Source of the DNA: a bacterium | GTDB taxonomy: Bacteria; Zhuqueibacterota; Zhuqueibacteria; Residuimicrobiales; Krinioviventaceae | Direction: 5' to 3' | Assembly: GCA_963693055.1 (NCBI GenBank) | Contig: OY843751.1 | Location: 3,552,001-3,616,000, forward strand | Length of the DNA: 64,000 nt | Part shown: piece by piece, positions 19,806-64,000 of the stretch | Position numbering within the stretch: position 1 is the first letter of the stretch | Layout of the letters: every line of letters begins with the position of its first letter | Position numbers and translations under genes: made by a program | The notes under the pieces: generated by a model | Database searches by the model: none | Seen by the model: the letters and a program-made list of their open reading frames with translations, nothing else | What the model was told of the DNA's origin: nothing

Positions 19806-21200
19806 TCAATCAACAATACTATTCAAGTATTTCTCCAACATGGTATAACCGTCTTTAGCTATGATATTTCTATCATTGGGATCGTCTTTATTTAGATGAT
19901 TCTCAATCTCCCAAACATCAGGCATGCCATCATTATCAGAATCTGTGGGGGCCGGAGCACTTTTAAGTATTGGCCAGCCACCAACATCATTTTGGGTGTC
20001 AATAATGCCACATATTTTTGATGGATCAGCAACCTGGTGCTCATTTTTATAACTGAGCCCTTCAAAGGTTGCATTGCCTGTACGTACTTCGTTAATAATT
20101 CTTTTATCAATGGCATCTCTTTTGGGCACAATTGCGCCCGCATTGTTTAGAACAGTTTGGTAAGCTTTTTGGGCAGTTTGTTGTTTAATAGACATGGATG
20201 GCCAGGGTTCATCAAGTTTGATTTTTTCTACAGATATATCCGTTTGTACTCCTCCATCCCAATTATGGGCTGAAACCTCATCATTACCCTCAACAACATT
20301 ATCTGCGATGTACCATTTTCCATGATCTGTTTCGCTTCTAAAAGAGGGACTGGCAATTCGGTACGATACATTACCGGGCTTTGTAGCCGGACCCGGTTTA
20401 TAATAATTGGCAACAATATTAAAACTGGAAAAATTAAATCGATCATCACCGGTTTGAAACTTTTCACCACCGTAAAGGCTTTGATACCCCCAGTTATAGA
20501 TCACATTATTTCTATAATCCGTATATCCGGAACCCGAAGCCATTCTCGGATTTCTACTGCTATGATGCGCCAGCAGATTATGATGATAGGAACTATAATT
20601 ACTTCCCCAAATACCACCAAAACCGTGAGAACCTTTGATATGATTAGATTTACTCATACTTTCTGAAATAATGCACCATTGAACCGTCACACTATCGCAA
20701 TGATAGATCGACATACACTCATCAACACTCCAGCTTGCTGATATATGGTCAAGAATAATATTTTTAGTAAATCGGCTCGATATGGCATCATAATCATTAC
20801 CCGATTCATCCCCCAGTCTTACCCGAAGGTATCTGATGATGACATGGTCCGCATCAATACTAATGGGATGTCTTTTAATACAAATACCATCACCCGGTGC
20901 TGTTTGGCCAGCTATGGTAATATACGGTTTCTTGATTTTTAATGGACTTTCAAGATCTATTGTACCAGACACCTCAAAAACAACTGTTCGTGGACCTGAG
21001 GCCTCAATCGCAGCTCTTAGACTTCCTTCTCCGCTATCATTCAAATTGGTAACTTTGTATACAACACCACCCCGACCGCCTGATGTATATTTCCCATAAC
21101 CCTCGGCTCCGGGAAAAGCGAGTTGTTGAGAATGTAGCTGTCCAAATATTATTAAGATTATAAACAATACTACTGATTTAAAAATGTAAAAATACTTCAT
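19806..21200 (-). CDS. Pectate lyase, PL1 (subfamily 2-like), secreted
   Basis: Signal peptide; LAFPGAEGYG..GGRGG, TIAGQTAPGDGI, DHISASWSVDE, RNPR, DSDNDGMPDVWE, GYTMLEKYLN. Confidence 0.88.
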   Translation of the reverse strand: MKYFYIFKSVVLFIILIIFGQLHSQQLAFPGAEGYGKYTSGGRGGVVYKVTNLNDSGEGSLRAAIEASGPRTVVFEVSGTIDLESPLKIKKPYITIAGQTAPGDGICIKRHPISIDADHVIIRYLRVRLGDESGNDYDAISSRFTKNIILDHISASWSVDECMSIYHCDSVTVQWCIISESMSKSNHIKGSHGFGGIWGSNYSSYHHNLLAHHSSRNPRMASGSGYTDYRNNVIYNWGYQSLYGGEKFQTGDDRFNFSSFNIVANYYKPGPATKPGNVSYRIASPSFRSETDHGKWYIADNVVEGNDEVSAHNWDGGVQTDISVEKIKLDEPWPSMSIKQQTAQKAYQTVLNNAGAIVPKRDAIDKRIINEVRTGNATFEGLSYKNEHQVADPSKICGIIDTQNDVGGWPILKSAPAPTDSDNDGMPDVWEIENHLNKDDPNDRNIIAKDGYTMLEKYLNSIVD

Positions 21201-21219
21201 AGTTTACTCTCGTCTTAAA

Positions 21220-22662
21220 TTATTCAACGGTAACAACTATCCGTTGATATCTCGTTAATTGCGGTGTTCCTGAATCTTTTACCTCGCAAATGACATGAAG
21301 GGTTTCACCTTTAGCAGCATCTTTAGGAATAATAAAGGATGCCTGTTCCTGCCCTGCATCTTTAATATCAATGATTCCATCATAGGTATCCGCTTCTTTA
21401 TATTGCCACCATTGATATGTAAGATCATCTCCATCCGGATCGGTTGTGCCCTTGGCGTTTAAATTCACCAAATCACCCGGTTTAGCCTGCAAATCATTTG
21501 CATGTGCCAGCCTAACGATTGGCGGATGATTGGCCTCATCATACGAATTCACACACCAGTCGGCACGGGCAGCAAAATCATTTTGAAACGCATCGGACCA
21601 TCTCCAAATGGGTTTAAAATATTCAGCATGGTCATTACTGTTTGATACAGTTGCGCCTTTTTTAGAACTCGTTCTTCCCCATGCCGATGAGCCATACCAC
21701 CGACCTTTAGGATATTCATAACCTTTTTCTGGTACCGGATCAAGCCAGGTGTTCTCTCGAATGCGTACATAGCGACCACCCCAGCCTCCCCAGTCCGGAG
21801 ATTCAAGGTTTCGCAAACCGGTAACAATCGCGTGCATAAATGAGGGCGAATCGCCTTCGGAACGGAAATCCCCGTCATCAAATCCTTTATCGCCTGCTTT
21901 GTGTGCTTTGTAAAGCGAGCACAAAGGACCATGATTATCTAATATATTGCTTTTCATCCACTCGCCAACATAATATGGATGCATATCCTGGGGCTGACAG
22001 GTCTTCCATCGATAGGCAATGGCCTCAAACTGGTCAGAAATAATGGTTAGGATATTATATTTGCCCCAATGCGGACGAATATATGCCTGATAGGTTGAAT
22101 CCTGTTCCCAGATAAAAAAGAAGCGGATTTTGTTGGCCACCTCTTGCATACGATCAGGATGATCTTCTTCAATTGTCCTGAGCGCTCGCGCTATAGTATT
22201 GGTTCCACCCCAGGCCTGCAGCCAAACCGGACGATCATCAGATTTGTCCAATAATACTTTGACAATCAACTCTGAACCGGCAGTTATTTTATCCATTTCA
22301 CCTTCAGTTTCAACATTTCCAAGTGCTGTACGTGCTTTAAGGTAATCCGGAGTAGGATATTCAGGATCATGCTTGACCAGGTTGGGATAAACCTGCGTGT
22401 ACGCATCAAGATAGGGATCAAGCCAGTCATCACCGGCCCACCGGTGTCCGTGCCAGTGATATTGCGAACTGGAGGTTACAATCGCTTCAATGTCCCAGTC
22501 ATTGGTATAAAGCAGACAACGCACCATGGAACACTCGTCATCAATCTCTCCATCACTGGTAATAATAACGCGTGGTTTTTCTGAATCTTGAGACTGGTTT
22601 ACGGCAAACACATATAATGATGTTAACAAAATAATTAATAGTATAAAATTTATGATTTTCAT
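21220..22662 (-). CDS. DUF1593 (nucleoside-hydrolase-like) secreted protein with C-terminal Ig/PKD-like domain
   Basis: ATG 22662 with GAGG RBS; KPRVIITSDGEIDD, AWGGTNTIA, SEGDSPSF, GGWGGRY, FQNDFAARADWC..ANHPP, DPDGDDLTYQWW. Confidence 0.8.
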   Translation of the reverse strand: MKIINFILLIILLTSLYVFAVNQSQDSEKPRVIITSDGEIDDECSMVRCLLYTNDWDIEAIVTSSSQYHWHGHRWAGDDWLDPYLDAYTQVYPNLVKHDPEYPTPDYLKARTALGNVETEGEMDKITAGSELIVKVLLDKSDDRPVWLQAWGGTNTIARALRTIEEDHPDRMQEVANKIRFFFIWEQDSTYQAYIRPHWGKYNILTIISDQFEAIAYRWKTCQPQDMHPYYVGEWMKSNILDNHGPLCSLYKAHKAGDKGFDDGDFRSEGDSPSFMHAIVTGLRNLESPDWGGWGGRYVRIRENTWLDPVPEKGYEYPKGRWYGSSAWGRTSSKKGATVSNSNDHAEYFKPIWRWSDAFQNDFAARADWCVNSYDEANHPPIVRLAHANDLQAKPGDLVNLNAKGTTDPDGDDLTYQWWQYKEADTYDGIIDIKDAGQEQASFIIPKDAAKGETLHVICEVKDSGTPQLTRYQRIVVTVE

Positions 22663-22673
22663 TAAACAAATCC

Positions 22674-24161
22674 TCAATTTAATAATGCCACAGCAGACTG
22701 CCATCCCTTGTAATCATTCATCACATCAGGATTCTCCAGGGGATAATACACAATATGATCATATTTCAATTGTTTCAAATCATTCAGGTCTTTATACATA
22801 CCTGAACCCAATCCAGCCATTAATCCAGCACCCAGTGCAGAAATATCGGCTATACCTATATTATTTACATTAACACGCAAAAGGTCAGAGATAAACTGCA
22901 TTACAAATTTATTATTGGTAATACCACCATCGGCCATCAGTTCCTTTAAGGAAATGCCGGCATCTGCTTCCATAGCAGTGATCACGTCTTTTATCTGGTA
23001 AGGAATGGATTCCAATGCAGCCCGAACAATATGACGCTTGTCCGCACCAAAGGTCAAACCGCTGATCACAGCCCTTGCATCCATCTGCCAATGCGGCGCA
23101 CCTAATCCGCTGAATGCAGGTACCAAGTACACGCCTTCATTGCCATCCAAAGCAGTGGCCATAGCTTCTGTTTCTGACGAATCCGAAAATAGTCCCAACT
23201 GGTTCTTGAGCCAATTGATACTTGCTCCCGCAGTAACAATAATGCCTTCCAAGGCATAATCCGTTCTGTCAGCAGTGCTCCAGCAAATCGTTGCAACCAT
23301 ACCATTCTTAGATTCTACCCTTTTGCTGCCGGTATTCATCAAAATGGAGGAACCCGTACCCAAGGTAACTTTGGCATCTCCGGGAGCAAAGCATCCTTCG
23401 CCGAAAGCAGCCGCGTGCGAGTCTCCAATCATGCCGGTTATGGGAATAGGAGCTTCAAACACACCTTCAAAATCAGATGAACCATAATTATAAGCAGAGG
23501 GTTTGGGTTCGGGAAGGTTTAGTTTCTCCACACCAAACAATTTCAGCATTTCACTGTCCCATTTCAGCTCATTTATATTGAAAAACAGGGTTCGTGATGC
23601 ATTGGTATAATCCGTATAATAACTTTTTGCCTGTGTCAATTTATATAAAAGCCAGGAATCCACAGTACCGCCAAAAGCTTTGCCTGAATCAATTGCTGAT
23701 TTTACTATATCACTGTTCTCATTCAACCACATGACTTTAGTACCGGAAAAATAAGGATCAATGATTAAACCGGTGCGGGCTGTGATTTCTTTTTCAACAT
23801 CCTGCGTTTTGAGTCGGTTACAGATTTCTACCGAACGTTTGCACTGCCAAACTACCGCATTATGTAACGGATTGCCTGTTTCATCCCATAGTAAATAGGT
23901 TTCACGCTGGTTCGAGATTCCGCATGTGTTAATATTGTTCAAATCACCGCCCTGTTGTTTATACTGATCTACACACTGGTGAACGGATTCAATAACCGTT
24001 TGATAAATTTCTTCAGGGTTCTGTTCTACAAAACCGGGTTTGGGATAACTTGAAGCCAGTTCCACAGTTGCTTTAACAATCAGCTTTCCATTTTCGTCAA
24101 ATAAAACAGTTTTTGTTCCACTGGTGCCCTGATCAATCGCCAGGATTAATTTCTGCTGCAT
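22674..24161 (-). CDS. aplK: FGGY/glycerol-kinase-like kinase; probable D-apulose kinase
   Basis: LAIDQGTSGTK, GISNQRET, VWQC, DPYFSGTK, GDSHAA (GlpK has GDQQAA), YALEG; follows split transketolase in an apiose-type cluster. Confidence 0.7.
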   Translation of the reverse strand: MQQKLILAIDQGTSGTKTVLFDENGKLIVKATVELASSYPKPGFVEQNPEEIYQTVIESVHQCVDQYKQQGGDLNNINTCGISNQRETYLLWDETGNPLHNAVVWQCKRSVEICNRLKTQDVEKEITARTGLIIDPYFSGTKVMWLNENSDIVKSAIDSGKAFGGTVDSWLLYKLTQAKSYYTDYTNASRTLFFNINELKWDSEMLKLFGVEKLNLPEPKPSAYNYGSSDFEGVFEAPIPITGMIGDSHAAAFGEGCFAPGDAKVTLGTGSSILMNTGSKRVESKNGMVATICWSTADRTDYALEGIIVTAGASINWLKNQLGLFSDSSETEAMATALDGNEGVYLVPAFSGLGAPHWQMDARAVISGLTFGADKRHIVRAALESIPYQIKDVITAMEADAGISLKELMADGGITNNKFVMQFISDLLRVNVNNIGIADISALGAGLMAGLGSGMYKDLNDLKQLKYDHIVYYPLENPDVMNDYKGWQSAVALLN

Positions 24162-24170
24162 GAAAAATCC

Positions 24171-25115
24171 TTACTTTAATAATTGCTTTGCGGTTTCTGC
24201 CAATCCTTGTGCAGAAATACCATAATGACCAAATATTTCCAATTGACTACCAGTAACCGTATATTCATCAGGAATGCCTACACGCTTGAACGCGGTAGAT
24301 ATACCAGCTTCCAGAATTAGTGCGGCAACGGCCTCTCCCAGACCACCATTAACCAGATGTTCTTCTACTGTTATTACTGCATTACAGGATTGGGCCGCTG
24401 ATAAAATCGCTTCATTGTCCAGAGGTTTTATGGTATGCATACTTATCACTCTTGCAAATATTCCATAATCTGCCAGTTCCTCAGCAGCTGCAAGTGCATG
24501 ATAGACCGTTTCTCCTGTAGCAATTAAGGCAACATCATCACCTTTGCGCAAGGTTATGGCTTTGCCCGGTTCAAACACTGTATTTTCCGAGTGCAGATCA
24601 TACATGGGGCGTTTTCCAAACCGAACATAAACGGGATGCGGCATTTCAGCCGCAGCCATAATAGCATGACGGGTTTCAAAATTATCAGCAGGTACCATTA
24701 TCATTATATTATTAATAGCTCGCAATACAGCCAGATCGTGCAGTGAGTGGTGTGTAGAACCCAGGGCACCATAACTGACACCCGAGCTAATACCCACCAA
24801 CGTTACGGGATTATCAGAATAACAGACATCATTTTTGATCTGATCTAACGCACGGGCAGATAAAAAACAGCCCGGTGATACGGCAAAAACTTTTTTACCT
24901 GTAGATGCAAGTCCGGCAGATATGCCTACCAGATTCTGTTCAGCAATACCAACTTCAACAATCTGGTTTGGATATTTTTCTCCAAAAGGTACCAGTTTCC
25001 CTGACCCGCGGGAATCACTGGTTACTGCAAATATCGATTTATCTGTCTCTGCCAGTTCCATTAAGGTATTGGCAAAGACCTCAAGATTGGGTTTTCCTAA
25101 TACAAGGGAATTCAT
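24171..25115 (-). CDS. aptB: Transketolase C-terminal subunit; probable apulose-4-phosphate transketolase B
   Basis: TSDSRGSG, VGIAEQNLVG, GSTHHSLHD, TVEEH..GGLG. Confidence 0.75.
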   Translation of the reverse strand: MNSLVLGKPNLEVFANTLMELAETDKSIFAVTSDSRGSGKLVPFGEKYPNQIVEVGIAEQNLVGISAGLASTGKKVFAVSPGCFLSARALDQIKNDVCYSDNPVTLVGISSGVSYGALGSTHHSLHDLAVLRAINNIMIMVPADNFETRHAIMAAAEMPHPVYVRFGKRPMYDLHSENTVFEPGKAITLRKGDDVALIATGETVYHALAAAEELADYGIFARVISMHTIKPLDNEAILSAAQSCNAVITVEEHLVNGGLGEAVAALILEAGISTAFKRVGIPDEYTVTGSQLEIFGHYGISAQGLAETAKQLLK

Positions 25116-25213: not shown

Positions 25214-26038
25214 TTATAATGCGGACAACTGGCTATCCAGCTCCTGCATAGCAGTTTCATATTGTTCATCCGAAGGAACACCGTGGTGCCACTTTTTCAC
25301 ATTTTCCATAAAAGAAACACCTTTGCCTTTAGTGGTACGGGCAATAATCATAGTGGGTTTGCCGGTTTCCAAAGGCGCATTGTTCAATGTTGTTTCCAAC
25401 TCGTCAAAATTATGGCCATCAACCGTTTTTACAGCCCAACCAAATGCAGAAAATTTTTCTTCTAAAGGATCGGTCTCACATACTTCCTTGGTTGGGCCGG
25501 TGATCTGTAATCCGTTATAATCCAGAATGGCTACAAGATTGTCCAGCTTGTAATGCGATGCAGACAGCATGGCCTCCCAGTTTGAGCCTTCTGCTAACTC
25601 GCCATCTCCCAGCAGAGTAAATACCCGATAAGGAAGCTTGTCTTTTTTAGCAGCCAGGGCCATTCCCACACAGATTGGCAGCCCATGTCCCAATCCTCCG
25701 GTATTCTGCTCAATCCCTTTTACCTTACGGGTAGGATGCCCCACATAATTAGACTGGTACTTGCATAATGTTTCAAGATCAGTTACAGGGAAAAATCCCT
25801 TGTCTGCCAGCACAACATATAATGCTTCAACCGAATGCCCTTTGCTTTGGATATAGCGGTCACGGTTGGGATCAGAAAAGTTATCCGGCGTTACATTCAA
25901 AACGCGGTTATAAAGAACATTTAATATATCTATACAGGAAAGATCTCCGCCGGTATGACCGGCATTGGCGATCTTTATATATTTCAATATATTTTTTCGA
26001 TACTCGATCGATTTTTTCAACAATTCAGTTTTATTCAT
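25214..26038 (-). CDS. aptA: Transketolase N-terminal (TPP-binding) subunit; probable apulose-4-phosphate transketolase A
   Basis: GHTGGDLS, QSKGH, GHPT, GDGELAEGSNWEA, TTKGKGVSFME, WHH. Confidence 0.75.
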   Translation of the reverse strand: MNKTELLKKSIEYRKNILKYIKIANAGHTGGDLSCIDILNVLYNRVLNVTPDNFSDPNRDRYIQSKGHSVEALYVVLADKGFFPVTDLETLCKYQSNYVGHPTRKVKGIEQNTGGLGHGLPICVGMALAAKKDKLPYRVFTLLGDGELAEGSNWEAMLSASHYKLDNLVAILDYNGLQITGPTKEVCETDPLEEKFSAFGWAVKTVDGHNFDELETTLNNAPLETGKPTMIIARTTKGKGVSFMENVKKWHHGVPSDEQYETAMQELDSQLSAL

Positions 26039-26059
26039 TTTTACTCAACTATTTCATTA

Positions 26060-34339: not shown

Positions 34340-34376
34340 TTCTATTTCCTCTCTGATTTTGAATAACAATCCGGTT

Positions 34377-56875: not shown

Positions 56876-59584
56876 TTAATGGGATACAATTCGTTTAGCG
56901 TCACGCTTTAATACTTTGCGGTCCATAGGAACAGCACCTAAAATAATATAGCTTCCCTTGCCTATCATTTCCACATCATACACACCCGTTTCATATTCAA
57001 AATTATGTAAATCGAGAGCCGGCAGTTCTGATATAATAGCGGCATTTCTTACGCGTGGAGCAAAGCCGCCACGTTCATTAGCGCGGGCTTCAAAATCCGG
57101 ATTAGGGACCTGCAGCCATTGAGAGTCTTTGTTCTTGAAATAACCTACCAGTAATCGTAATGGCTCATTCACTTTTATACGAAAGGTCATAACATCATTT
57201 TGGGCCTGTTTGTTGGAAAACCGGATTCCTTTTAATCCAATAAACTCGGGAGCAATGTCTTGAATTTCAAAATCCTCATCTGTAAACACCCTGGCGCCCA
57301 TTTCTACAGTATAGTACTCGCCATTGTCAGACAATAACTCGTAATCCGCATTAGGATAGGGTTCCATATCCTTGTCCGCAAATCGCAGATTCGGATCGAC
57401 CTTGCCGGATTCCAGATCAGACACATATTGTTTAAATCCTGCAAGTTCTTCTTCGTACAAGGGCAGCACCTGGGTCCAATGATAATTGTAAGGAGTACCG
57501 TCAACCTCTCCGGGAAATGGAATACGACGATGATAGGTCAACATGCTTTGGGCCATACTATAGGTATCCCGGGTTCTTTCGGTCAATTCTCTAAAATAAT
57601 CCAAACTCTTGACCAGATTCGTCTCTGCGGATTTTAAATCATGAATGTCGTTTGAGAAATCATATCGCAACACATCCATTGCTGCTTTTACTTTGTAATA
57701 AAAATTCCAGGAAAGCAATTGAATGCAAATGATATCATTTTTATACCGCTCAAACTCGTCTTTATTTCGGGTGACATATTTTTCAGCCTGTTGGATTGAT
57801 TGCATTGCCCTGTCTGCAAATTCCACTGCACCATGTATCACCGAAGGCGGTGTTTCGCCAACATGCGGTTGCTCGTTCCACTCTTTTTCAGCATATTCCT
57901 GCAAGCGTTCTCCGGGAGGTGCCTGAGAAAGCCATAAATCCGGAAACGGGCTATACGGTTCAGGATTCGCCAACTGGTCCAATGTCATACCCAGGGAAAA
58001 GGTTTGTCGATTTCCCTCGGTAATTCCAAACCGTCGCAGCAGCATAGGCGCACATTCACCGGCATCATTCAAAGCATCCAGTATATTAACTGCGGCTTGT
58101 TCACTACCAAATTTTTCTGCAAGACGTGCAATCCAATACGCTTTTTCTCCTGCTTCATCCCGCCAGGGGTTCCAGGCATAACGGGCCCAAGCCTCGTACC
58201 ACATCCAGTCCCGTTCATATTGCAGTAATTGGGGTTCTACCTTGTCCCCGGCGTAAGGCCAGTTCCAGTAAAATAATGGATAGAGATGCAAGCCCTGAGC
58301 TTCCAACCGTTCTTCCATAGCTTGTACGCTTTTTTGAATAAAACGCTGCGCTCCATAACGAAACGGTTCCAGGTTTGCCAATATATGCACATTCACAACA
58401 TGCTGCGATCCTAACCGGCTCATATCCAAATGGACCTGCCGCCAGGGACCGCGAGGTTCGGTGGTGGTCAGCGATTCACCATTATATTTTGCCATGGTAT
58501 AGAGATTTTTATATAGTGGTAATGCAGCTTCCATAATCGCTTTGGGATCTGTAGCATGCGCGCGCAATACAATGGGAGGTTCCTCTGTTTTCCCCAAAGC
58601 GTTTAATCCATCCTTCACTCCGGGGATAATTACCTTGGTAAACCATTCAACCTGATTTTCGGTACCGCGCAGTGCTTCACCTAAACAAACCAGTAATCCG
58701 ACATTGGGATATTTTTCCACAAACGCGGCAATGGATTTACGATTATAATCAGATACCAACGGACTGGGCTCTCTGTGCTGGGTATCAATATTGTGTTTTT
58801 CCGCAAAGGGTTGTGATACAAAAATATTATAAAACATTTGAATAATCCAGATACCGCGCTTGTCCGCTTCGGTTGTGATGTATTCAAACATTTCCACATT
58901 TTTTTCAAAAATCGCATCAGATACTTCAATAGCGTAAGGATACGCTTTTAATTTCACCAATGACGCAAAGGGATGTCCGTTCCACAAATAAAGTGTATTC
59001 AGTCGGTTTTCCACCATCAAATCCAGATACTCTTTCCAAAAGGATTTATCATAGAAAAACGGAAAATTCTCGGGAGTATAGGGATATTCATACATTTTGC
59101 GATCAGGCAAGATCTTGGGTTTTTGCATACCAATCACAGTACCGCGAAGCACCATGCTAGGCTGGTCTGTTACATCCAGATCGATTGGCAACGCCCCTGC
59201 GGTTTGAATACGGTTTGCCAACTCGAGGCAACCATACAACACACCTGAGGGATCCGCACCGATCACATAAATTCTATCTTTATCGGATTTGAGTACAAAT
59301 CCTTCCTTGTCGATCTCAATTTGTGAGAATGCATCATTTCCATCTGGTAAATCCGAATTATTTCGTGTACCAATAATAATGATTTTATCTTTGAACGACT
59401 GGTTACCCGTGCGGGTAACATTTGATTCAAAACCCAGTGTTTGCAAAACGGTTGTAATTTTCTCAATTCCAAAAGCAATCCGGGGTACATGTTTTTGGGG
59501 AGATACTATTGTTACAGATTCTGCTGAATAGCTGATTGAAACAGCCAATAGCAAAATCAACAATATTTTGGATTTATAAAACAT
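56876..59584 (-). CDS. GH138-like alpha-D-galacturonidase, secreted
   Basis: GH20/GH67-like N-domain GADPSGVLYG; YEYPYTPENFPFFYDK, YLWNGHPF, LVCLGEAL, IVLRAH, KYNGESLT, NVHILANLEPFRY, RRFGITEGNRQT recalled as the BT0997 pattern. Confidence 0.78.
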   Translation of the reverse strand: MFYKSKILLILLLAVSISYSAESVTIVSPQKHVPRIAFGIEKITTVLQTLGFESNVTRTGNQSFKDKIIIIGTRNNSDLPDGNDAFSQIEIDKEGFVLKSDKDRIYVIGADPSGVLYGCLELANRIQTAGALPIDLDVTDQPSMVLRGTVIGMQKPKILPDRKMYEYPYTPENFPFFYDKSFWKEYLDLMVENRLNTLYLWNGHPFASLVKLKAYPYAIEVSDAIFEKNVEMFEYITTEADKRGIWIIQMFYNIFVSQPFAEKHNIDTQHREPSPLVSDYNRKSIAAFVEKYPNVGLLVCLGEALRGTENQVEWFTKVIIPGVKDGLNALGKTEEPPIVLRAHATDPKAIMEAALPLYKNLYTMAKYNGESLTTTEPRGPWRQVHLDMSRLGSQHVVNVHILANLEPFRYGAQRFIQKSVQAMEERLEAQGLHLYPLFYWNWPYAGDKVEPQLLQYERDWMWYEAWARYAWNPWRDEAGEKAYWIARLAEKFGSEQAAVNILDALNDAGECAPMLLRRFGITEGNRQTFSLGMTLDQLANPEPYSPFPDLWLSQAPPGERLQEYAEKEWNEQPHVGETPPSVIHGAVEFADRAMQSIQQAEKYVTRNKDEFERYKNDIICIQLLSWNFYYKVKAAMDVLRYDFSNDIHDLKSAETNLVKSLDYFRELTERTRDTYSMAQSMLTYHRRIPFPGEVDGTPYNYHWTQVLPLYEEELAGFKQYVSDLESGKVDPNLRFADKDMEPYPNADYELLSDNGEYYTVEMGARVFTDEDFEIQDIAPEFIGLKGIRFSNKQAQNDVMTFRIKVNEPLRLLVGYFKNKDSQWLQVPNPDFEARANERGGFAPRVRNAAIISELPALDLHNFEYETGVYDVEMIGKGSYIILGAVPMDRKVLKRDAKRIVSH

Positions 59585-59648: not shown

Positions 59649-62132
59649 CTATTTATATGCTGGCTGTAACGTTTTAAAAACTTTCAGGGATACCGGACCC
59701 TCTGACGGCCACTTGCCATCAGGCATTGGGATGGTTACCAAAGATTCGGGATCCAACACAACATGTTTGATCCGTTCGCGGTGCCAGGTATATACAATAT
59801 GTACCAATCCGTCACGGGATTGGATGACTGACGGATACGAAAACTGCTTGCCATAGTCGTCAAGATAATCAAGGATCATGGCAGCTTCCCAGTTGATGCC
59901 GTCACGACTTGTTGCAACATTTAATATTCCGCGGCCCTTGCGTCCCATACCCGGCTGGGTACGTGTTGAATGGTTATAAACGAGCAGTTGCCGACCATCT
60001 TTTAACGTTACACCATCCAATCCTGAATTGTTGTTAGGCATGCCCAACGTATCCAGGGGTGTCCAGGTAAGCCCCTTATCCTCTGACCAGCTTTCACCGA
60101 TAAAACCATGTTTTGAACTGGTCCGACAAAGTAACTGAATGCGCCCATCAGGATAGGTTAAAAGCGTTGGCTGAATAGCTCCAAATCCATCCTTTGGTAG
60201 AATGGGTCCAATAAAGGTCCAGGATTTGCCATTATCTGTACTGCGCTCAACATGCACACGCCACCCGTTTTCATCTTCAATACTTGAAGGGGACAAGATG
60301 GTACCATCCGCAAGCTGAATGGGTTTATTCTTGACCGCACCAATAAAATCATTACCCACTTTTTGGGGTTTGCTCCAGGTATGGCCGCCATCGCTCGAGG
60401 TCTTGACTCGCCCCATAAATTCTGTTTCAGGTATAAAGACTTTGTAAAAAAGCAAGAGATCCCCGCCTTGAGGTTGAAACAATACAGGATTCCCGGTAGC
60501 CATACGTTCGCCACCTTCATCTCCATCGGCTACACTTACGGGAGCAGACCATGCACCTCCGGGAGCTTTACGAGACATCCAGATTTCAACATCAGGATTC
60601 CCCTCCCCTGATCCTGCAAAATACACACACAACAGCTCACCGTTTTCCAGTTCCAGTATTGATGAGGAATGACAGGATCGGAACGGTCGCGAGTCTCCAA
60701 AAACAAATTCTTCTAATTGCAATCCCGCGCGTTCGGTCAAATTTATATAATCAATAAATATTGCCGGATCCGTATTATTGAGATACTCTTCAAGGTTGGT
60801 ATATCCATCTCCATCCTTGTCCATTTTACCATCAGACGCATCATGGGGATCAAAGCCCATTTCCTTTTCCCAAGAATCCGGCATACCATCCTGGTCCGTA
60901 TCGATCGGTGCGGAAGCGGAAACAAGCTCAGGCCAGCCGCCGACATCATTCTGGCTTGTGATGATCTTGCCGGTGCGGTTTTTGACAGATGTGACAATAC
61001 GTATGTCCACAGCATCCCGTTTTGGCAGAATTGCCCCGCCACTCTGCAAAACGCGTTTATATGCTTCAGGTGCTTCCAAATGTTTTACAGGGCCGGTTTC
61101 AAAAGGTTGATCTTTTTTATAATTGCAAATATCATTATCAGACCAGGATTCCCGCCATCTCAGCAAACTCCATTGGTCCTCAACGAGTTGACCATCATAA
61201 TAATTTTCGGCAAAATAAGAACGGTTATAAGGTGAACCGGTGGAATAAGCAATACCATTATTTGCTGAATTTATACCGGGTATGAGATAATTGCCCACAT
61301 AATTCAAACGTGTAATGCTTATTGCGTCATTGCTATAACCCGCATAATCACCGCCCCAGTTATAGATTACATTGTTTCTGAAATCAAGCAAAAATCCATC
61401 AGAGTCTTTAAAATAAGGATTATCATCATAATTACCCGGACGCGGATTACGACCGCGGTTGTGCGCGTAAAGGTTGTAAAGATAGCTGAATTTTGCACCA
61501 CCTGAACCGCGGATCAGGGAACCAAATCCGTGATTATCGGGATTTAAACCCTCGGTAATGAAACACCATTGAACGGTGATTCGGGTCATATTGGGATAAT
61601 GGGTCGAGGCAGATAACGCTTCATCCAGGCTCCAGCTTGCGGAACAGTGATCAATGATAATGTCCCATCCTTTGGAAACACTGATAGCATCTTTACCCTG
61701 AAGACCGCCGACGCCATGCATGGAATCGCCCAATCGACAACGGATGTAACGAATAATCACATCATGTGTAGCTACATCAAGGGTTTCACCTTTAATACAT
61801 ATTCCATCGCCCGGCGCTGTTTGTCCGGCAATGGTGATGTAAGGATTTTCAATATCAAGCTTACTTTTGATCTCAATGATACCCGAGATATCAAATACAA
61901 CCGTACGGCGGCCTTTTTGCTCTACTGCCCATCTCAGGCTTCCGGGTCCATCATCATTAAGGTTGGTAACATGTAGAACTTTGCCACCGCGTCCGCCTTT
62001 GGCATATGCGCCAAAACCTTCAGCACCAGGAAAAGCCGGAATTTCTTTCACTTCTGCCAACAAGCTTGATGTTATTAGTAAAAAAGAAACAGTACACAAC
62101 ATACTCAATCGTATCAAAATATTCTTTTTCAA
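59649..62132 (-). CDS. Bimodular PL1 pectate lyase + BNR/sialidase-like (GH33-like, candidate Kdo hydrolase) domain
   Basis: Probable TTG start 62132. PL1 from PAFPGAEGFG to DGYTNLEEYLN; then CHSSSI, GNPVL, Asp-boxes SSDGGHTW/STDNGKSW/SEDKGLTW/SRDGINW, KNKP, IQP, NNNSG, SYP, YTWHR. Confidence 0.82.
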   Translation of the reverse strand: MKKNILIRLSMLCTVSFLLITSSLLAEVKEIPAFPGAEGFGAYAKGGRGGKVLHVTNLNDDGPGSLRWAVEQKGRRTVVFDISGIIEIKSKLDIENPYITIAGQTAPGDGICIKGETLDVATHDVIIRYIRCRLGDSMHGVGGLQGKDAISVSKGWDIIIDHCSASWSLDEALSASTHYPNMTRITVQWCFITEGLNPDNHGFGSLIRGSGGAKFSYLYNLYAHNRGRNPRPGNYDDNPYFKDSDGFLLDFRNNVIYNWGGDYAGYSNDAISITRLNYVGNYLIPGINSANNGIAYSTGSPYNRSYFAENYYDGQLVEDQWSLLRWRESWSDNDICNYKKDQPFETGPVKHLEAPEAYKRVLQSGGAILPKRDAVDIRIVTSVKNRTGKIITSQNDVGGWPELVSASAPIDTDQDGMPDSWEKEMGFDPHDASDGKMDKDGDGYTNLEEYLNNTDPAIFIDYINLTERAGLQLEEFVFGDSRPFRSCHSSSILELENGELLCVYFAGSGEGNPDVEIWMSRKAPGGAWSAPVSVADGDEGGERMATGNPVLFQPQGGDLLLFYKVFIPETEFMGRVKTSSDGGHTWSKPQKVGNDFIGAVKNKPIQLADGTILSPSSIEDENGWRVHVERSTDNGKSWTFIGPILPKDGFGAIQPTLLTYPDGRIQLLCRTSSKHGFIGESWSEDKGLTWTPLDTLGMPNNNSGLDGVTLKDGRQLLVYNHSTRTQPGMGRKGRGILNVATSRDGINWEAAMILDYLDDYGKQFSYPSVIQSRDGLVHIVYTWHRERIKHVVLDPESLVTIPMPDGKWPSEGPVSLKVFKTLQPAYK

Positions 62133-62167
62133 AATCCCATCTCCCAAAAAGTTAATTACAACTTTTC

Positions 62168-63460
62168 TCATTTAGGTTCCAGACAACGGTTTATACGGGC
62201 CTCAAAATCATCGAGAAACGCTTTGCGCCATTGATTCACCGTAACAGCTCCATAGTGGGCACCCTCTTTAAATTCAGGCTCAAGCCTATCGGTCCACCAG
62301 TGCGTATGGGCTACTGCTTTGTCATATTTGGGCAAACTATTCTCTGCAACAGCAGTAAAAACACCTTTTCCGCCATCCAGCTCAGATATATCGCTCTTGA
62401 TTTGATAATTCCAAACACCAACAGCCTTTGGCGCAAAACGGAGTATATACTTGCCGTTTCCATAATAATAACCCTGAAAATCCTGTTTTGCAATAGTAAA
62501 AGTAAATTGCGGTTCATCGTTCGCAGGACCTATATCCGGTCCATCCAAAACAATCTCAATTATACCAAAAACTTCAACTTTGTCGTTTTTGTTTGTGTGT
62601 CCGTAAAAAACCGATTTTGGACGATAATCGGTTTTGGTATAACTCCCTCCCCAGCTTTCATCAGAGGGATCATCAGGATTCCCATGCAGCAGCCATGCAA
62701 CACTGGGAGTGTCTCCCATCTTGATACTGCCGCCATAATAGTTTCCAAAAGCAGTACCCAAAGCTCCATGACCGTCAATATTTTGCTTGAAAAACTCTAG
62801 GTTATCATAGCTACCATCCATTATTCCACCGTTGAACCAGCCACGATACGTGGAATTACTCTCAATCATCCATAAATCGGGGAAATTCTCTTCAATATAA
62901 TTGTATGCATCCGCACCCCACTTTTTATTGGGACCACCGATATAATAAATTCGTATCTTTTCCTGAATGCTCGGGTCATCATGCAATGCCTGTGCAACAT
63001 CCTCCAACAGCCCCCATACCAATATGTTCAGGGGACGTGGATCGTCCTTGTGCGTACATTTAATAATCCAGTCCGAGCCTTCTGTTGCGTCCCGGTAACC
63101 TTTGCCGGGTGCGCGATCAATTGCGCCCTGTTTGCACACAGCACGTAACACATCAGGATCAGGATAATTCTCTGACCATGTTTTTAAATTGTCATAATCT
63201 TTTTCATACAGATCAATGATATCAAAAATATCCTCTTTTGTACCCGCACCCCAAGGAGAAGCAATCAGTCCTTCGGTATCAAACACATCGGCATAAAGCA
63301 AATAATGGATCATGGATTGAAAATCATCAGGATCGCTGCCACCGATATCACTACTCACAATTACCCGGTATCGCTCACCAGTTAACGCTCCACTATGAGA
63401 TTGTGAAAATCCCAGAACAGGCAAAAAAATTATCGCCACTATTAAAATTATTCTTTTCAC
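62168..63460 (-). CDS. Second DUF1593 (nucleoside-hydrolase-like) secreted protein
   Basis: GTG start after AAGGAG; RVIVSSDIGGSDPDDFQS, TEGSDWII, DPRPL..VWG, KMGDTPS, SWGG. Confidence 0.78.
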   Translation of the reverse strand: MKRIILIVAIIFLPVLGFSQSHSGALTGERYRVIVSSDIGGSDPDDFQSMIHYLLYADVFDTEGLIASPWGAGTKEDIFDIIDLYEKDYDNLKTWSENYPDPDVLRAVCKQGAIDRAPGKGYRDATEGSDWIIKCTHKDDPRPLNILVWGLLEDVAQALHDDPSIQEKIRIYYIGGPNKKWGADAYNYIEENFPDLWMIESNSTYRGWFNGGIMDGSYDNLEFFKQNIDGHGALGTAFGNYYGGSIKMGDTPSVAWLLHGNPDDPSDESWGGSYTKTDYRPKSVFYGHTNKNDKVEVFGIIEIVLDGPDIGPANDEPQFTFTIAKQDFQGYYYGNGKYILRFAPKAVGVWNYQIKSDISELDGGKGVFTAVAENSLPKYDKAVAHTHWWTDRLEPEFKEGAHYGAVTVNQWRKAFLDDFEARINRCLEPK

Positions 63461-63567
63461 GGATTTGCTCCTTATTCAAGTCTATACATGTACAAGACAA
63501 AATAAATAATAATAATTAAAGAATAATTAAAACCACTTTTCAGGCCAAGCAAACACATTCCTTTATA

Positions 63568-64000
63568 TTATCTTTTTAAAATAGCTGTAGGCCTGGCTCC
63601 ATTTTCAAAAACAATCTGATTTTTCTCTAATTCAGAATTCAGTATTTCAATATCTTTGGTTTTGTTTCCAACCAATTTGATAAAAACATTGTCATTATTC
63701 ACAACTTTGGGTGAATCAATGGATACATTTATACTATTTGCAATAGTCAATGCCGGACCGGTTACAGGTTCAATACATACATTCTTTAACTGGATTCCAT
63801 CCGCATCTACGCACATTAATCCTTTATCTGCGGAAATATTGACATTATCCAGGTGTATGCCCCGTATTGGCATTTCCGGCAATCCCTGCAGCAAAACGGC
63901 ACGGCCCGCTCCACGACAGGTAACATCACTCAACCAGATATTACGGAATTGTGGAGTCTCTTCCGAAACAGGTACCGCAGGAGCGCCCTCATTCCCACCG
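63568..64000 (-). CDS. C-terminal part of a GH28 polygalacturonase-like beta-helix protein (5' end beyond window)
   Basis: Frame open to the window edge: PVSEETPQFRNIWLSDVTCRGAGRAVLLQGLPEMPI. Confidence 0.72.
   Translation of the reverse strand, partial: GGNEGAPAVPVSEETPQFRNIWLSDVTCRGAGRAVLLQGLPEMPIRGIHLDNVNISADKGLMCVDADGIQLKNVCIEPVTGPALTIANSINVSIDSPKVVNNDNVFIKLVGNKTKDIEILNSELEKNQIVFENGARPTAILKR

Follow-up and report, generated by a model that had tools for sequence, protein, structure and literature searches.

From 19806 to 64000 of the window (the whole 64,000-nucleotide stretch of DNA that was analysed), 29 complete ORFs and one ORF cut by the window end lie on the minus strand throughout, and the junctions between array ORFs run from -44 to +185 bp. 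The array continues past 64 kb to ~76.8 kb, giving 36 genes on one strand over ~57 kb; positions beyond 64000 are window-equivalent. An earlier sequence-only reading described about 30 consecutive minus-strand genes with short or overlapping junctions, extending over at least 44 kb and ending at a terminator at ~19.7 kb, and this description held in each respect; two terminator-like sites were found in 19400-20000, where 0.3 were expected. The array is headed at its 5′ end by the gene for a 1081-aa TonB receptor, and a 539-bp gap separates this gene from a regulator gene. The boundary features, regulators, pectin enzymes and a permease are:

19705..19727, minus strand: terminator-like hairpin at the array end (8-bp stem, 5 GC pairs, then a T run)
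19806..21200, minus strand: secreted PL1-type (PelZ-like) pectate lyase with signal peptide (NF041900, 154 bits, below cut-off)
21220..22704, minus strand: DUF1593 / Sde182 nucleoside-hydrolase-like protein (PF07632, 246 bits; PF21027; PDB 2yhg_A, E 7e-59)
31602..32363, minus strand: DeoR-family regulator (DeoRC, HTH_DeoR)
32486..34387, minus strand: PL11 rhamnogalacturonan lyase (RGL11_C, 377 bits)
34377..36428, minus strand: GH42-like secreted protein (Glyco_hydro_42, 44.8 bits)
36444..38723, minus strand: two-domain esterase (AXE1, 41 bits), distantly like the 6goc esterase (6goc_A, E 1e-11), which we take to be BT1017 (CE19)
44663..46549, minus strand: GH143 Dha-hydrolase homologue lacking a GH142 half (5mqr_A residues 38-577, E 6e-120; PF24067, Beta-prop_BT_1020, 274 bits)
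46574..49279, minus strand: GH78 alpha-L-rhamnosidase, predicted signal-less (five GH78 Pfam domains)
49465..50901, minus strand: permease, NCS1-like by the names of its homologues
50943..52373, minus strand: GH140 apiosidase-family lipoprotein (Pfam Apiosidase, 375 bits)
52416..54443, minus strand: GH127 aceric acid hydrolase (NCBIfam NF049879, 1110 bits against a cut-off of 950)
54461..56038, minus strand: DUF5060 + apiosidase-like + DUF5605 protein (Pfam)
56035..56805, minus strand: GDSL esterase (Pfam)
56876..59584, minus strand: GH138 alpha-galacturonidase homologue (NF049878, 1148 bits, below the cut-off of 1300)
59649..62171, minus strand: fusion of a PL1-type lyase (9buj_A, E 4e-44) and a BNR (GH33-like) domain (BNR_2, 264 bits, C-terminal half)
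62168..63460, minus strand: DUF1593 + DUF5060 protein (Pfam)
63568-65247, minus strand: first GH28 gene (cut by the window at 64000; called from the whole ORF)
65262-66839: second GH28 gene
66872-68995: GH95-like protein, 707 aa
69024-70073: GH43-like protein
77367-78539: XylR/AraC-type regulator, across the 539-bp gap from the TonB receptor gene

The family calls proposed from the letters alone survive HMM and PDB tests for GH127, GH140, GH143, GH78, GH28, the BNR/GH33-like domain and the PL1-type lyases; the GH138 protein aligns over nearly its full length (model positions 6-886 of 901) but scores below cut-off. The PelZ-like matches of the two lyases, which we take to belong to family PL1, reach 154 and 167 bits, below the 840 cut-off. 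The PL11 lyase was missing from the family list of the sequence-only reading. Signal peptides are present on the GH143, GH140, GH127, GH138, GH28, BNR-domain, PL1-type and PL11 proteins and on the esterases. The GH143 and GH138 genes, like the DUF1537 kinase and PdxA-type genes described below, occur once each in the genome, all inside the locus. Among the further families suggested for checking, GH2, GH95 and GH106 are present in the genome but outside the locus, GH88/105 gave marginal matches only, and the locus showed no GH142.

The GH78 ORF opens at the first start codon that follows a stop, and the protein lacks a hydrophobic N-terminus; a homologue (G135, 40% identity) carries a signal peptide. 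The neighbouring permease (478 aa, ~10 TM segments) has no Pfam match even at E<=5; homologues ~65% identical to it are named as purine-cytosine permease family (NCBI, JGI), and a paralogue (55% identity) adjoins a RhaA-like isomerase elsewhere in the genome. The pairing of this signal-less GH78 with an NCS1-like permease suggests cytoplasmic cleavage of one rhamnoside. Three inner-membrane transporter types had been proposed for the locus; Pfam confirms the ABC and SSS types, and the NCS1 type is only partly confirmed, by homologue names but not by Pfam.

The PULs of Bacteroides thetaiotaomicron for the plant pectin rhamnogalacturonan-II (RG-II), in the BT0977-BT1030 region, were reportedly described by Ndeh et al. 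in 2017. Our locus shares with them homologues of the GH127 aceric acid hydrolase, GH140 apiosidase, GH143 Dha hydrolase and GH138 alpha-galacturonidase, together with those of GH78, GH28 and a PL1-type lyase, a GH33-like domain, the esterase with its distant likeness to 6goc, and the clustering of enzymes with a TonB receptor and regulators (B. thetaiotaomicron enzyme table in PMC13501991). Unlike them, it has no SusC/SusD; what accompanies its receptor is a T9SS-tailed protein plus a PorV-like barrel. Its GH143 stands alone, GH2, GH95 and GH106 lie outside the locus, and cytoplasmic apiose and (predicted) Dha pathways are built into it. In a preprint that also lists the RG-II sugars (10.64898/2026.03.13.711244), B. 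thetaiotaomicron is said to secrete Kdo and methylated sugars, and pathways for these in other gut microbes are given as unconfirmed.

The in-locus enzymes are only part of the B. thetaiotaomicron RG-II degradome, and the locus mixes RG-II families with RG-I/HG enzymes (PL11, GH28, PL1-type). This could instead be a general pectin locus, for homogalacturonan, RG-I or apiogalacturonan, in which the RG-II-family homologues have other substrates and RG-II goes unused: the PL11, the two GH28, the two PL1-type lyases and the esterases would all fit, as would the absence from the locus of many side-chain families, the sub-cut-off GH138, and the nearest paralogue of the receptor group described below, which heads a plain pectate locus. 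Apiose, too, occurs in the apiogalacturonans of aquatic plants as well as in RG-II. We nevertheless consider a general pectin locus improbable, since the aceric-acid hydrolase passes its equivalog model, the GH143 protein matches BT1020 (E 6e-120), aceric acid and Dha are to our knowledge known from RG-II only, and the four single-copy genes named above all lie in this locus. The RG-II degrader first proposed from sequence is supported, by family calls that withstand testing and by a SusD-free genome, with a partial in-locus enzyme set. Acting in the periplasm or at the surface, the signal-peptide enzymes would free Dha, apiose, aceric acid and galacturonate, as well as Kdo in view of the BNR domain.

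Profile search of the window agrees with the earlier statement that its visible part has no SusC/SusD pair. A TonB receptor does head the array, however; it lies 9.6 kb past the window end and has an N-terminal carboxypeptidase-regulatory-like domain, as might be expected of an ordinary Bacteroidota PUL with SusC/SusD just outside the window. This receptor, however, reaches 41.9 bits on the SusC/RagA model TIGR04056, whose cut-off is 368, and that model has 56 matches genome-wide, none above cut-off and nearly all spanning only its N-terminal part. The Pfam models SusD_RagB, SusD-like_3, SusD-like_2 and SusD-like find no match in the genome, which is complete (100% completeness), while all four match B. 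thetaiotaomicron. SusD is sparse in the host phylum, being found in 57 of 151 sampled genomes (1-6 copies each) and in one of 16 other genomes of the host family, and eight of the nine ThiI relatives with organism labels are KSB1/Zhuqueibacterota. On the four-model SusD null, the SusC score and these relatives we reject the Bacteroidota PUL, to which we give next to no chance. The same results support a KSB1-type host without SusD, in keeping with the non-Bacteroidota origin suspected at the outset.

The genome encodes SprA (662 bits), so a T9SS translocon is present, and the genes at the head of the array are:

70317-71330: PorV/PorQ-family barrel (NF033709, 178 bits against a cut-off of 90)
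71355-73532: a 725-aa T9SS-tailed protein, here called X
73582-76827: the TonB receptor (TBDR), 1081 aa

The host genome holds 11 tight sets of a TBDR, an X paralogue and a PorV-like gene. In a metagenome sample of 80 loci, with X homologues 39-71% identical, the TBDR is directly upstream of X in all 54 loci with enough upstream DNA, the PorV-like gene immediately follows X in 71 of 71, and the triad is complete in all 48 with both flanks; pectin genes lie beside it in 37 of the 80. The only printed instance of this arrangement that we found is a pair of unexplained genes, 'hypA/hypB', in the Rhodothermus marinus alginate locus, in a figure legend of PMC9530828.

Besides a signal peptide and a T9SS tail, X has a galactose-mutarotase-like body and an FN3 domain. 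In its structure model (pLDDT 87, pTM 0.84), residues 35-497 fold as a supersandwich of the galactose-mutarotase type (5nz7_A: Z 16.5, 268 residues at rmsd 3.8 A), and residues 623-725 are similar to the C-terminal domain of PorZ (5m11_A: Z 10.6, 84 residues at rmsd 2.3 A and 24% identity); the fold comparison found no catalytic domain. An HMM of the X tail matches the C-termini of ordinary T9SS cargo in the genome, with X-type tails forming a separate subclass (39-167 bits, against <30 for other cargo, among the matches listed). The predicted complex of the barrel with X residues 495-725 gave an ipSAE of 0.92, against 0.00 for the best of three controls; three runs shared at least 90% of contacts, with partner pLDDT of at least 79. 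Of solved complexes, 116 of 157 attain the ipSAE mark, against two of 215 mismatched pairs; this calibration holds only roughly here because custom alignments were used.

Complexes of PorV with cargo tails have already been solved, so the barrel-X result may merely mirror that likeness. X and its barrel might then be ordinary T9SS cargo and shuttle, an adhesin or enzyme lying merely beside a receptor that works alone; several triads also have flanks without clear carbohydrate genes, and in the nine other triads of the genome whose flanks were scanned, clear carbohydrate genes or LacI/hybrid-kinase sugar regulators were found in only four. We think this rather unlikely in view of the invariant gene order, the many paralogous triads within one genome, the distinct subclass of the X tail, the carbohydrate-binding type of fold modelled without a catalytic domain, and the near-canonical PorV (242 bits) kept elsewhere in the genome. 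We propose instead that X is anchored to the cell surface through a PorV-like barrel of its own, as the complex model predicts, and is the likely surface partner of the TonB receptor. The receptor would take in pectic fragments, aided by the carbohydrate-binding fold of X. The arrangement recalls SusC/SusD (RagA/RagB), in which a glycan locus starts with a large TonB receptor whose N-terminus has a carboxypeptidase-regulatory-like domain, and a surface-partner gene follows, but X is not a SusD-fold lipoprotein and comes with its own barrel gene. With PorQ-PorZ and PorV-cargo pairs it shares the PorZ-like C-terminal domain and the predicted docking on a PorV/PorQ-family barrel.

Between the PL1-type end of the array and its centre lies a block at 22.7-31.6 kb:

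22674..24161, minus strand: FGGY kinase, predicted apulose kinase (AplK-like; best genome match of E. coli AplK, 36% identity)
24171..25115, minus strand: split transketolase C-terminal subunit (AptB-like; 45% identity to E. coli AptB; Pfam)
25214..26038, minus strand: split transketolase N-terminal subunit (AptA-like; 51% identity to E. coli AptA)
26060..27466, minus strand: FucI-type sugar isomerase, putative apiose/apulose isomerase (Fucose_iso_C, 105 bits)
27481..31585, minus strand: ABC importer of permease, ATPase, DUF2291 protein and lipoprotein SBP (Pfam)

A D-apiose transketolase pathway (MetaCyc PWY-8089) was reportedly described by Carter et al. in 2018, and the block resembles it in the AplK-like kinase, split AptA/AptB and ABC importer with SBP and DUF2291. 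When the E. coli apiose cluster was searched against the whole genome, eight of ten queries matched at E<=1e-5, five of them (AptA, AptB, AplK, permease and SBP) with their best genome match inside the block. AptA and AptB discriminate well (264 bits against 104 for the next match, and 235 against 121), AplK weakly (327 against 304), and the block ATPase is only the second-best genome match of its counterpart; the four importer components, DUF2291 included, are those of E. coli. The isomerase, a single-copy gene in the genome, found no match in a PDB sequence search. On these comparisons the block is orthologous to the E. coli apiose cluster. Apiose would be imported by the ABC system, isomerised by the FucI-type enzyme, phosphorylated by the AplK-like kinase and converted by the AptA/AptB-like transketolase to xylulose-5-P and DHAP. 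Isomerisation differs among the systems, with the FucI-type enzyme here, two SDR oxidoreductases in E. coli (the SE15 cluster) and ApsI in the Pectobacterium cluster, clusters described in PMC13001218. Unlike those clusters, this block sits within a polysaccharide locus beside a GH140 gene.

A second block, at 38.7-44.6 kb, adjoins the GH143 gene:

38738..40291, minus strand: sodium:solute symporter (SSS), putative Dha importer (SSF, 146 bits; adjoins the block in relatives)
40322..41467, minus strand: DUF1537 acid-sugar kinase, predicted D-threonate kinase (SBD_N + NBD_C)
41521..42561, minus strand: PdxA-family oxidative decarboxylase, predicted 4-phospho-D-threonate dehydrogenase (PdxA, 359 bits)
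42575..43501, minus strand: DHDPS/NAL-family class I aldolase, predicted Dha aldolase (DHDPS, 165 bits)
43491..44636, minus strand: Fe-dependent alcohol dehydrogenase, predicted aldehyde-acid reductase (Fe-ADH + ADH_Fe_C)

D-threonate catabolism by DtnK (DUF1537) and PdxA2 was reportedly described by Zhang et al. in PNAS in 2016, and here too a DUF1537 kinase is followed by a PdxA-family oxidative decarboxylase that would yield DHAP. The locus differs in placing an aldolase and a reductase upstream of this pair, in including a symporter and a Dha-releasing glycosidase, and in that both members of the pair score below the D-threonate equivalog cut-offs: the top NCBIfam match of the kinase is D-threonate kinase (123 bits against 450), and that of the PdxA-type protein is D-threonate 4-phosphate dehydrogenase (NF002891, 336 bits against 583). 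The aldolase keeps the YNIP catalytic Tyr and GLKDS Schiff-base Lys (alignment to 4xky_A). GH143 is the family given as releasing Dha in the enzyme table of PMC13501991. By our own reasoning, a cut of 3-deoxy-D-lyxo-heptulosarate between C3 and C4 would leave a threo C4 aldehyde-acid, reduction of which gives D-threonate. The block is therefore predicted from its gene families to turn the sugar acid Dha into pyruvate, DHAP and CO2 by a route so far undescribed: after SSS import, the aldolase would yield pyruvate and 4-oxo-D-threonate, the Fe-ADH would reduce the latter to D-threonate, and the kinase and PdxA-type enzyme would phosphorylate and oxidatively decarboxylate this to DHAP and CO2.

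Linkage to GH143 is conserved. In ~40 kb around the GH143 genes (~40-62% identical) of ten relatives, the aldolase, PdxA-type and kinase genes lie within ~4 kb of GH143 in seven, in two the PdxA-type and SSS genes alone are present, with the nearest GH143 at a distance of 0.4 and 14.7 kb, and no Dha-block gene was found in one; in the 95%-identical relative (L004) the block is fully syntenic. The Fe-ADH is absent from the block in five of the ten, with a split transketolase there instead in four of these five. This transketolase is unaccounted for by the Dha model. Across 151 genomes of the phylum, which are kin and not independent, a close kinase homologue (E<=1e-20) occurs in 11 of 18 GH143-positive and four of 133 GH143-negative genomes, leaving seven GH143-positive genomes without the kinase.

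The block might serve another role: its substrate could be free D-threonate, a different C4 acid sugar or Kdo, or it could be the last part of a non-phosphorylative rhamnose/fucose pathway (aldolase and lactaldehyde reductase) or belong to vitamin B6 synthesis. Such a role would suit the four kinase-positive genomes without GH143 and the five relatives without Fe-ADH, and lactaldehyde reductase is among the best Fe-ADH names (243 bits). The dehydrogenase, lactonase and dehydratase needed for rhamnose/fucose are, however, absent from the locus, and the kinase and PdxA-type enzyme would be left idle; cleavage of Kdo would yield a neutral pentose rather than an acid sugar. The PdxA-type protein clears the cut-off of the generic PdxA model TIGR00557 (353 bits against 290) and is the sole PdxA-family copy in a genome that also has PdxJ, so it may also serve vitamin B6 synthesis, but PdxS provides a PdxA-independent B6 route. 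As only Dha accounts for all five genes with no gap, and the block is found at GH143, at least partly, in nine of the ten relatives, we regard a non-Dha role as unlikely.

On balance we consider it fairly probable that this is a 36-gene, one-strand pectin/RG-II locus of a SusD-free KSB1-type bacterium, likely working in three stages of capture and import, sugar release, and catabolism, in the last of which apiose and Dha would cross the inner membrane and be burnt. Depolymerisation is physically linked to rare-sugar metabolism in the array, as first suggested, through the apiose pathway and the predicted Dha pathway. If the Dha route is true, D-threonate would be an intermediate of Dha breakdown and not a starting nutrient.

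The genome that carries the window is a single contig of 6.535 Mb with 39.4% GC, rated 100% complete with 1.26% contamination, and the long one-strand run claimed for 19806-64000 is real: it holds 29 complete ORFs and a thirtieth that the window edge cuts, every one of them on the minus strand, with intergenic junctions of -44 to +185 bp. The terminator claimed for its end corresponds to a minus-strand, terminator-like hairpin at 19727-19705 directly after the last gene; the stretch 19400-20000 has two such sites, where shuffled sequence would give 0.3. The same-strand run goes on past 64 kb, and from receptor to terminator it amounts to 36 genes over 57 kb. Since gaps of up to 243 bp lie inside the array (the widest being 243, 185, 122 and 107 bp), it is likely to comprise several transcription units. 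Three sequencing runs of a single study contain the whole stretch and may be its source; no RNA run that contains it is listed. Its further part, in window-equivalent coordinates, is as follows:

beyond 64 kb, minus strand: two GH28 genes
beyond 64 kb, minus strand: a 707-aa protein, GH95-like by atlas features only
beyond 64 kb, minus strand: a GH43-like gene
beyond 64 kb, minus strand: a PorV/PorQ-family barrel (NF033709, 178 bits, cut-off 90)
71355-73532, minus strand: X, 725 aa, no Pfam or PDB relative found by sequence
73582-76827, minus strand: a TonB receptor (TBDR), 1081 aa, head of the array
past the receptor: a 539-bp gap, then a XylR/AraC-type regulator

PDB sequence searches gave no match for the 478-aa permease of the array, the 707-aa protein, X or the FucI-type isomerase, and a relaxed Pfam scan (E<=5) gave nothing useful for the 478-aa permease or X.

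On the plus strand at 10170-18439 lie a FadL/TodX-type outer-membrane protein, a 280-aa protein of no family, a 726-aa TonB receptor with a carboxypeptidase-regulatory-like domain, an M49-like peptidase and an M3 oligopeptidase F, which may form a peptide uptake and degradation unit. The minus-strand row at 5489-9958 (TetR regulator, ETF beta and alpha subunits, a 662-aa Fe-S/CCG-domain oxidoreductase) looks like an electron-transfer module of the fatty-acid oxidation type. Downstream of the locus region, at window-equivalent 89-102.7 kb, there is a type IV pilus/T2SS-like set with a secretin, two T2SSE ATPases, T2SSF, a PilS-like kinase, a response regulator and a 957-aa Big_1/invasin-repeat protein.

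Among known glycans rhamnogalacturonan-II (RG-II) is often described as the most complex. The RG-II-specific families named by the sequence-only reading largely withstood HMM and PDB tests. GH127 passes the NCBI aceric acid hydrolase equivalog (NF049879, 1110 bits vs a cut-off of 950), GH140 matches Pfam Apiosidase (PF13204, 375 bits), and GH143 matches both Pfam Beta-prop_BT_1020 (PF24067, 274 bits) and the BT1020 structure 5mqr_A (E 6e-120); the GH78 and BNR_2 (GH33-like) calls likewise have clear Pfam matches. For GH138, the 902-aa protein aligns over its full length with the alpha-galacturonidase model NF049878, but at 1148 bits it falls short of the cut-off of 1300. The locus GH143 protein aligns to residues 38-577 of the 1108 in 5mqr_A, the N-terminal (GH143) half only, whereas BT1020 of Bacteroides thetaiotaomicron (B. 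theta) has a GH142 beta-L-arabinofuranosidase as its C-terminal half. To the families already listed can be added a PL11 lyase at 32486-34387. PelZ-like lyase domains occur in two proteins, with scores under cut-off; for one of the two, the pectate lyase structure 9buj_A is a match at E 4e-44. The locus further encodes a GH42-like and a DUF5060/apiosidase-like protein. No clear Pfam call for GH2, GH95 or GH106 was found inside the locus; elsewhere in the genome there are five matches to the GH95 catalytic domain, 17 to GH2 and at least one to GH106, as well as two more GH140 copies, and the profile for GH105 unsaturated galacturonyl hydrolase (PF07470) gave marginal matches only (best 25.7 bits).

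Members of the DUF1593 family (Sde182 nucleoside-hydrolase-like) occur at 21220-22704 and 62168-63460, one of them fused to DUF5060. We know of no activity assigned to this family, for which a structure is solved (2yhg); its recurrence inside a pectin locus hints at a carbohydrate-active role. The GH78 gene adjoins an NCS1-like permease gene. That transporter assignment is in part upheld, homologues at ~65% identity being so named by NCBI/JGI, but the ~10-TM protein has no Pfam match. The GH78 protein has no signal peptide, and its ORF opens at the first start codon after a stop; a 92%-identical copy in L004, a locus from a 95%-identical relative, likewise has none, and a 40% homologue in genome G135 of the same phylum has one. 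A 55%-identical paralogue of the permease adjoins a RhaA-like isomerase in a second locus, and our guess is that the GH78/permease pair has a rhamnoside or rhamnose role. That second, RG-II-related locus (genome 4961832-4978546, L042) holds a LacI regulator, the RhaA-like isomerase, the permease paralogue, an esterase, a sulfatase, a URO-D-like protein, an SSS symporter, a second GH140, a DUF5916/CBM9 protein and a GH106 rhamnosidase. Alignment to L004 (488-5601) breaks the GH140, GH127 and DUF5060 genes into several pieces whose query ranges overlap, through either assembly-error frameshifts or gene decay; the DUF1537 kinase of genome G110 is likewise in two pieces.

A SusC/SusD pair just past 64 kb would have made this an ordinary Bacteroidota locus, and such a pair was looked for. 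The next DNA instead carries one TonB receptor, at 73582-76827, and it is not of the SusC type: on the SusC/RagA model TIGR04056 it scores 41.9 bits vs a cut-off of 368, over model positions 3-220 only. Genome-wide this model gives 56 matches, none over cut-off and nearly all to its N-terminal part only. The SusD models PF07980, PF14322, PF12771 and PF12741 have zero matches in the complete genome, B. theta being positive in each control, and the gene after the receptor, X, has no Pfam match and a fold that differs from SusD. The locus shares with a SusC/SusD-type polysaccharide utilisation locus (PUL) its co-localised CAZymes and regulator, but the SusC/RagA transporter and the SusD lipoprotein are absent.

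The lineage points the same way. SusD is found in 57 of 151 sampled genomes of the phylum, with one to six matches each, and in 1 of 16 other genomes of the family; such sparseness is not as expected of a Bacteroidota sample. Among the 120 best relatives of the window's ThiI, nine carry organism labels: seven candidate division KSB1, one Zhuqueibacterota and one Calditrichaeota, Zhuqueibacterota being the name proposed for KSB1 in a passage of PMC11683472. The genome encodes the T9SS translocon SprA (662 bits) and one near-canonical PorV (242 bits vs a cut-off of 250). Because of these labelled relatives, SprA and PorV, the assignment to a poorly studied FCB lineage is supported, and so is the reading of the array as an RG-II locus without SusC/SusD, with these corrections: a TonB receptor heads the locus, RG-I/HG enzymes (PL11, GH28, PL1-type) are in it as well, and its set of RG-II enzymes is partial. 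A GH143 scan of named genomes returned one locus only, L004.

At the head of the array is a triad: receptor, X and PorV-like barrel. A blastp search with the three proteins against all ORFs of the genome gave 11 tight sets of TBDR, X paralogue and PorV-like gene, and one looser set; the X paralogues are of 685-1280 aa, and their likeness lies mainly in the last 100-270 residues. The closest set, at 47-51% identity, stands at the front of a pectate locus that encodes PL10, GH28 and T9SS-tailed DUF4957/DUF5123 proteins. Flanks of nine other sets give a mixed picture, with clear carbohydrate genes or LacI/hybrid-kinase sugar regulators at four of them. The locus of the closest paralogue (genome 3243305-3259546, L039) comprises T9SS-tailed DUF4957/DUF5123, a 556-aa protein of no family, TBDR, X, PorV-like, a 1216-aa T9SS cargo, PL10 Pec_lyase and GH28. 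Metagenome contigs gave 484 relatives of X, and conservation was read from the best 80 loci. Wherever at least 1.2 kb of DNA precedes X (54 loci), a TBDR homologue on the same strand has its end no more than 1.5 kb before X (54/54); wherever at least 0.9 kb follows it (71 loci), the start of a PorV-like gene is no more than 1.5 kb away (71/71); and both genes flank X in 48/48. Homologues of the locus PL1-type lyases, GH28, GDSL or two-domain esterases are neighbours of the triad at 37 of these 80 loci. Full-length X homologues (40-73% identity) are all unnamed and without Pfam domains, the labelled ones coming from Fidelibacterota/Marinimicrobia, KSB1, Kryptonia and 'bacterium I07'.

An AlphaFold model of X from a 45-row alignment (pLDDT 87, pTM 0.84) contains, by VIA-align, a galactose-mutarotase-like beta-supersandwich at residues 35-497 (5nz7_A, Z 16.5, rmsd 3.8 A over 268 residues, with many further matches at Z 10-16), the fold found at the N-terminus of GH94, GH116, GH15 and GH65 enzymes. 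The end of the model, residues 623-725, is similar in fold to the PorZ C-terminal domain (5m11_A, Z 10.6, rmsd 2.3 A over 84 residues, 24% identity); Foldseek with the whole model gave low-TM domain matches only, PorU and PorZ among them. Pfam Por_Secre_tail has no match on X. An HMM of the X tail has 99 domain matches among the genome ORFs: 13 X-family proteins score 39-167 bits and the others, among those listed, score below 30 bits and are, with few exceptions, at the very C-terminal end, several of the matched proteins carrying Pfam Por_Secre_tail or FlgD_ig tails. Because of this PorZ-like C-terminal fold and the matches of its tail to the C-termini of T9SS cargo, X is a predicted T9SS cargo with a tail subclass of its own.

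Complex prediction of barrel residues 22-337 with X residues 495-725 gave an ipSAE of 0.92 (median of three runs), whereas the highest of three controls scored 0.00. This passes a mark that 116 of 157 solved complexes and 2 of 215 mismatched pairs also attain, a calibration that applies only approximately because the prediction used our own alignments. At least 90% of contacts recur in all three runs, the partner pLDDT does not fall below 79, and the predicted barrel contacts fall almost wholly in X 629-725. PorV-cargo complexes have been solved, and the pass of this prediction may reflect likeness to them. PorZ sits on PorQ via an uncleaved tail, and we suggest that X would similarly be exported by the T9SS, be kept on the cell surface by an uncleaved tail bound to its private barrel, and hand pectic chains to the TonB receptor. 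Such a role in the capture and hand-over of pectic chains would give X the job that in Bacteroidia belongs to SusD and the surface glycan-binding proteins. In the literature found, the triad appears in print once, as unexplained genes in a figure legend on the Rhodothermus marinus alginate locus (PMC9530828). For a described TBDR/T9SS/PorV uptake module the searches returned T9SS and Bacteroidota papers only, as judged by their listings, and the Caldithrix paper has nothing on glycan receptors.

Behind this front end lie two blocks of cytoplasmic catabolism. The first, at 22674-32363, encodes a DeoR regulator, a solute-binding protein (SBP, 30623-31585), a DUF2291 protein, an ATPase, a permease, a FucI-type isomerase, a split transketolase and an FGGY kinase, and we read it as apiose import and catabolism, because its composition matches the pathway and because of orthology searches with E. 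coli. The D-apiose transketolase pathway has the genes aplK, aptA, aptB and apsI (PMC13001218), and the cluster of E. coli SE15 comprises an SBP, DUF2291, ATPase, permease, FGGY kinase, regulator, two transketolase subunits and two SDR oxidoreductases. When these 10 proteins were searched against all ORFs of the genome (E<=1e-5), the window genes were the best matches for AptA (51% identity, 264 bits; next best 104), AptB (45%, 235 bits; next best 121), the permease (44%, 248 vs 164 bits) and the SBP (32%, 168 vs 83 bits). The window kinase is the best match to AplK (36%) by a narrow margin, 327 vs 304 bits, and its score on the NCBIfam glycerol-kinase subfamily model is over the cut-off as well (566 vs 498 bits); the window ATPase is the second-best match to its query. 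At that threshold the DUF2291 and regulator queries matched no ORF of the genome, and in the reverse search the window DUF2291 is 26% identical to that of E. coli (E 9e-7).

The isomerisation step differs. Both E. coli SDR queries match genes outside the locus, which has the FucI-type isomerase where E. coli has two SDR oxidoreductases, and we infer that this isomerase performs the step in the putative apiose block; E. coli, which has no apsI either, still grows on apiose (PMC13001218). A FucI-type isomerase with a pentulose kinase could also make the stretch at 22.7-27.5 kb a route for D-arabinose from Kdo, which we rank lower: that route has no need of a private split transketolase, and it was set aside after the orthology searches favoured apiose.

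The second block, at 38738-44636, has an SSS symporter, a DUF1537 kinase, a PdxA-family enzyme, a DHDPS/NAL-family aldolase and an Fe-ADH beside GH143 (44663-46549), and GH143 is the family that releases Dha (PMC13501991). By our own chemical reasoning, the symporter would import Dha, and a class I pyruvate aldolase would cut it between C3 and C4 into pyruvate and OHC-CHOH-CHOH-COOH. Dha is 3-deoxy-D-lyxo-hept-2-ulosaric acid, and the remaining centres would be threo (C5 left, C6 right in Fischer projection), which, numbered from the carboxylate, makes the reduced product D-threonate; this C4 aldehyde-acid would thus be reduced to D-threonate, phosphorylated and oxidatively decarboxylated to DHAP and CO2. 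DUF1537 kinases and PdxA2 are said, from work of Zhang et al. in 2016, to turn D-threonate via its 4-phosphate into DHAP and CO2. The DUF1537/PdxA2 pathway family is also summarised in a passage of PMC13753588.

The aldolase (42575-43501), aligned to 4xky_A, keeps the tyrosine motif YNIP and the lysine motif GLKDS. The window kinase has Pfam DUF1537 domains and its top NCBIfam name is D-threonate kinase (NF047819, 123 bits, below the cut-off of 450 and over the N-terminal part only), while that of the PdxA-type enzyme is D-threonate 4-phosphate dehydrogenase (NF002891, 336 bits, below 583); both proteins thus fall short of the equivalog cut-offs of the DtnK and PdxA2 pathway. The PdxA-type enzyme may also serve vitamin B6 synthesis, because its gene is the only copy in the genome, it passes the generic PdxA model (TIGR00557, 353 bits, over the cut-off of 290) and PdxJ is encoded too; against this, PdxS is also present.

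Conservation beside GH143 is consistent with the Dha pathway. GH143 is present in 18 of 151 phylum genomes, across eight families, and for ten of these ~40 kb round GH143 was taken and 37 locus proteins were mapped onto it. Aldolase, PdxA-type enzyme and kinase lie within ~4 kb of GH143 in seven (genomes G135, G132, G068, G110, G100, G042 and G004); two have the PdxA-type enzyme and SSS only (G124, 0.4 kb from a GH143, and G094, 14.7 kb); and the block is absent near GH143 in one (G052), whose kinase homologues are on other contigs. L004 is fully syntenic with the window block. A close kinase homologue (E<=1e-20) occurs in 11 of 18 GH143-positive vs 4 of 133 GH143-negative genomes, counts that are inflated by kinship. 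The Fe-ADH is absent from the block in five of the ten relatives, and in four of these (G132, G094, G068 and G124; loci L027, L017, L023 and L019) its place is taken by a split transketolase, directly upstream of the aldolase/PdxA-type/kinase/SSS block and 36-43% identical to that of the window, which the Dha model leaves without explanation. Across 8.1 million PMC papers and 0.36 million preprints 'heptulosaric' never occurs together with 'threonate', and occurs with 'aldolase' only in three papers that, by title and abstract, seem unrelated to Dha breakdown; PMC12994016 has no passage on D-threonate.

Taken as a whole, this would be a pectin/RG-II locus that resembles a PUL but differs in its outer-membrane front end and brings its own rare-sugar catabolism, its functions being predicted from sequence. 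We propose tentatively, and believe slightly less readily than we doubt, that KSB1/Zhuqueibacterota are environmental RG-II degraders without SusC/SusD, which capture pectin by a receptor-bound, T9SS-delivered binding protein on a private PorV-like barrel and, unlike B. theta, burn the rare sugars themselves, including Dha by an undescribed five-step pathway. The B. theta RG-II system is the only characterised one according to a preprint (10.64898/2026.03.13.711244), whose 2026 survey of 22,053 CAZy genomes found complete RG-II degradomes only in Bacteroidota and one near-complete in Verrucomicrobia; the main text of the two KSB1 genome papers mentions no pectin, rhamnogalacturonan, TonB or SusD. 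RG-II-specific hydrolases in a KSB1 locus widen the likely degraders to an uncultured phylum of sediment and soil. If true, the Dha pathway would provide D-threonate catabolic genes with a first natural source. The locus makes two questions testable with a few recombinant proteins: the fate of Dha, and how glycans are fed to TonB receptors in FCB bacteria that lack SusD.
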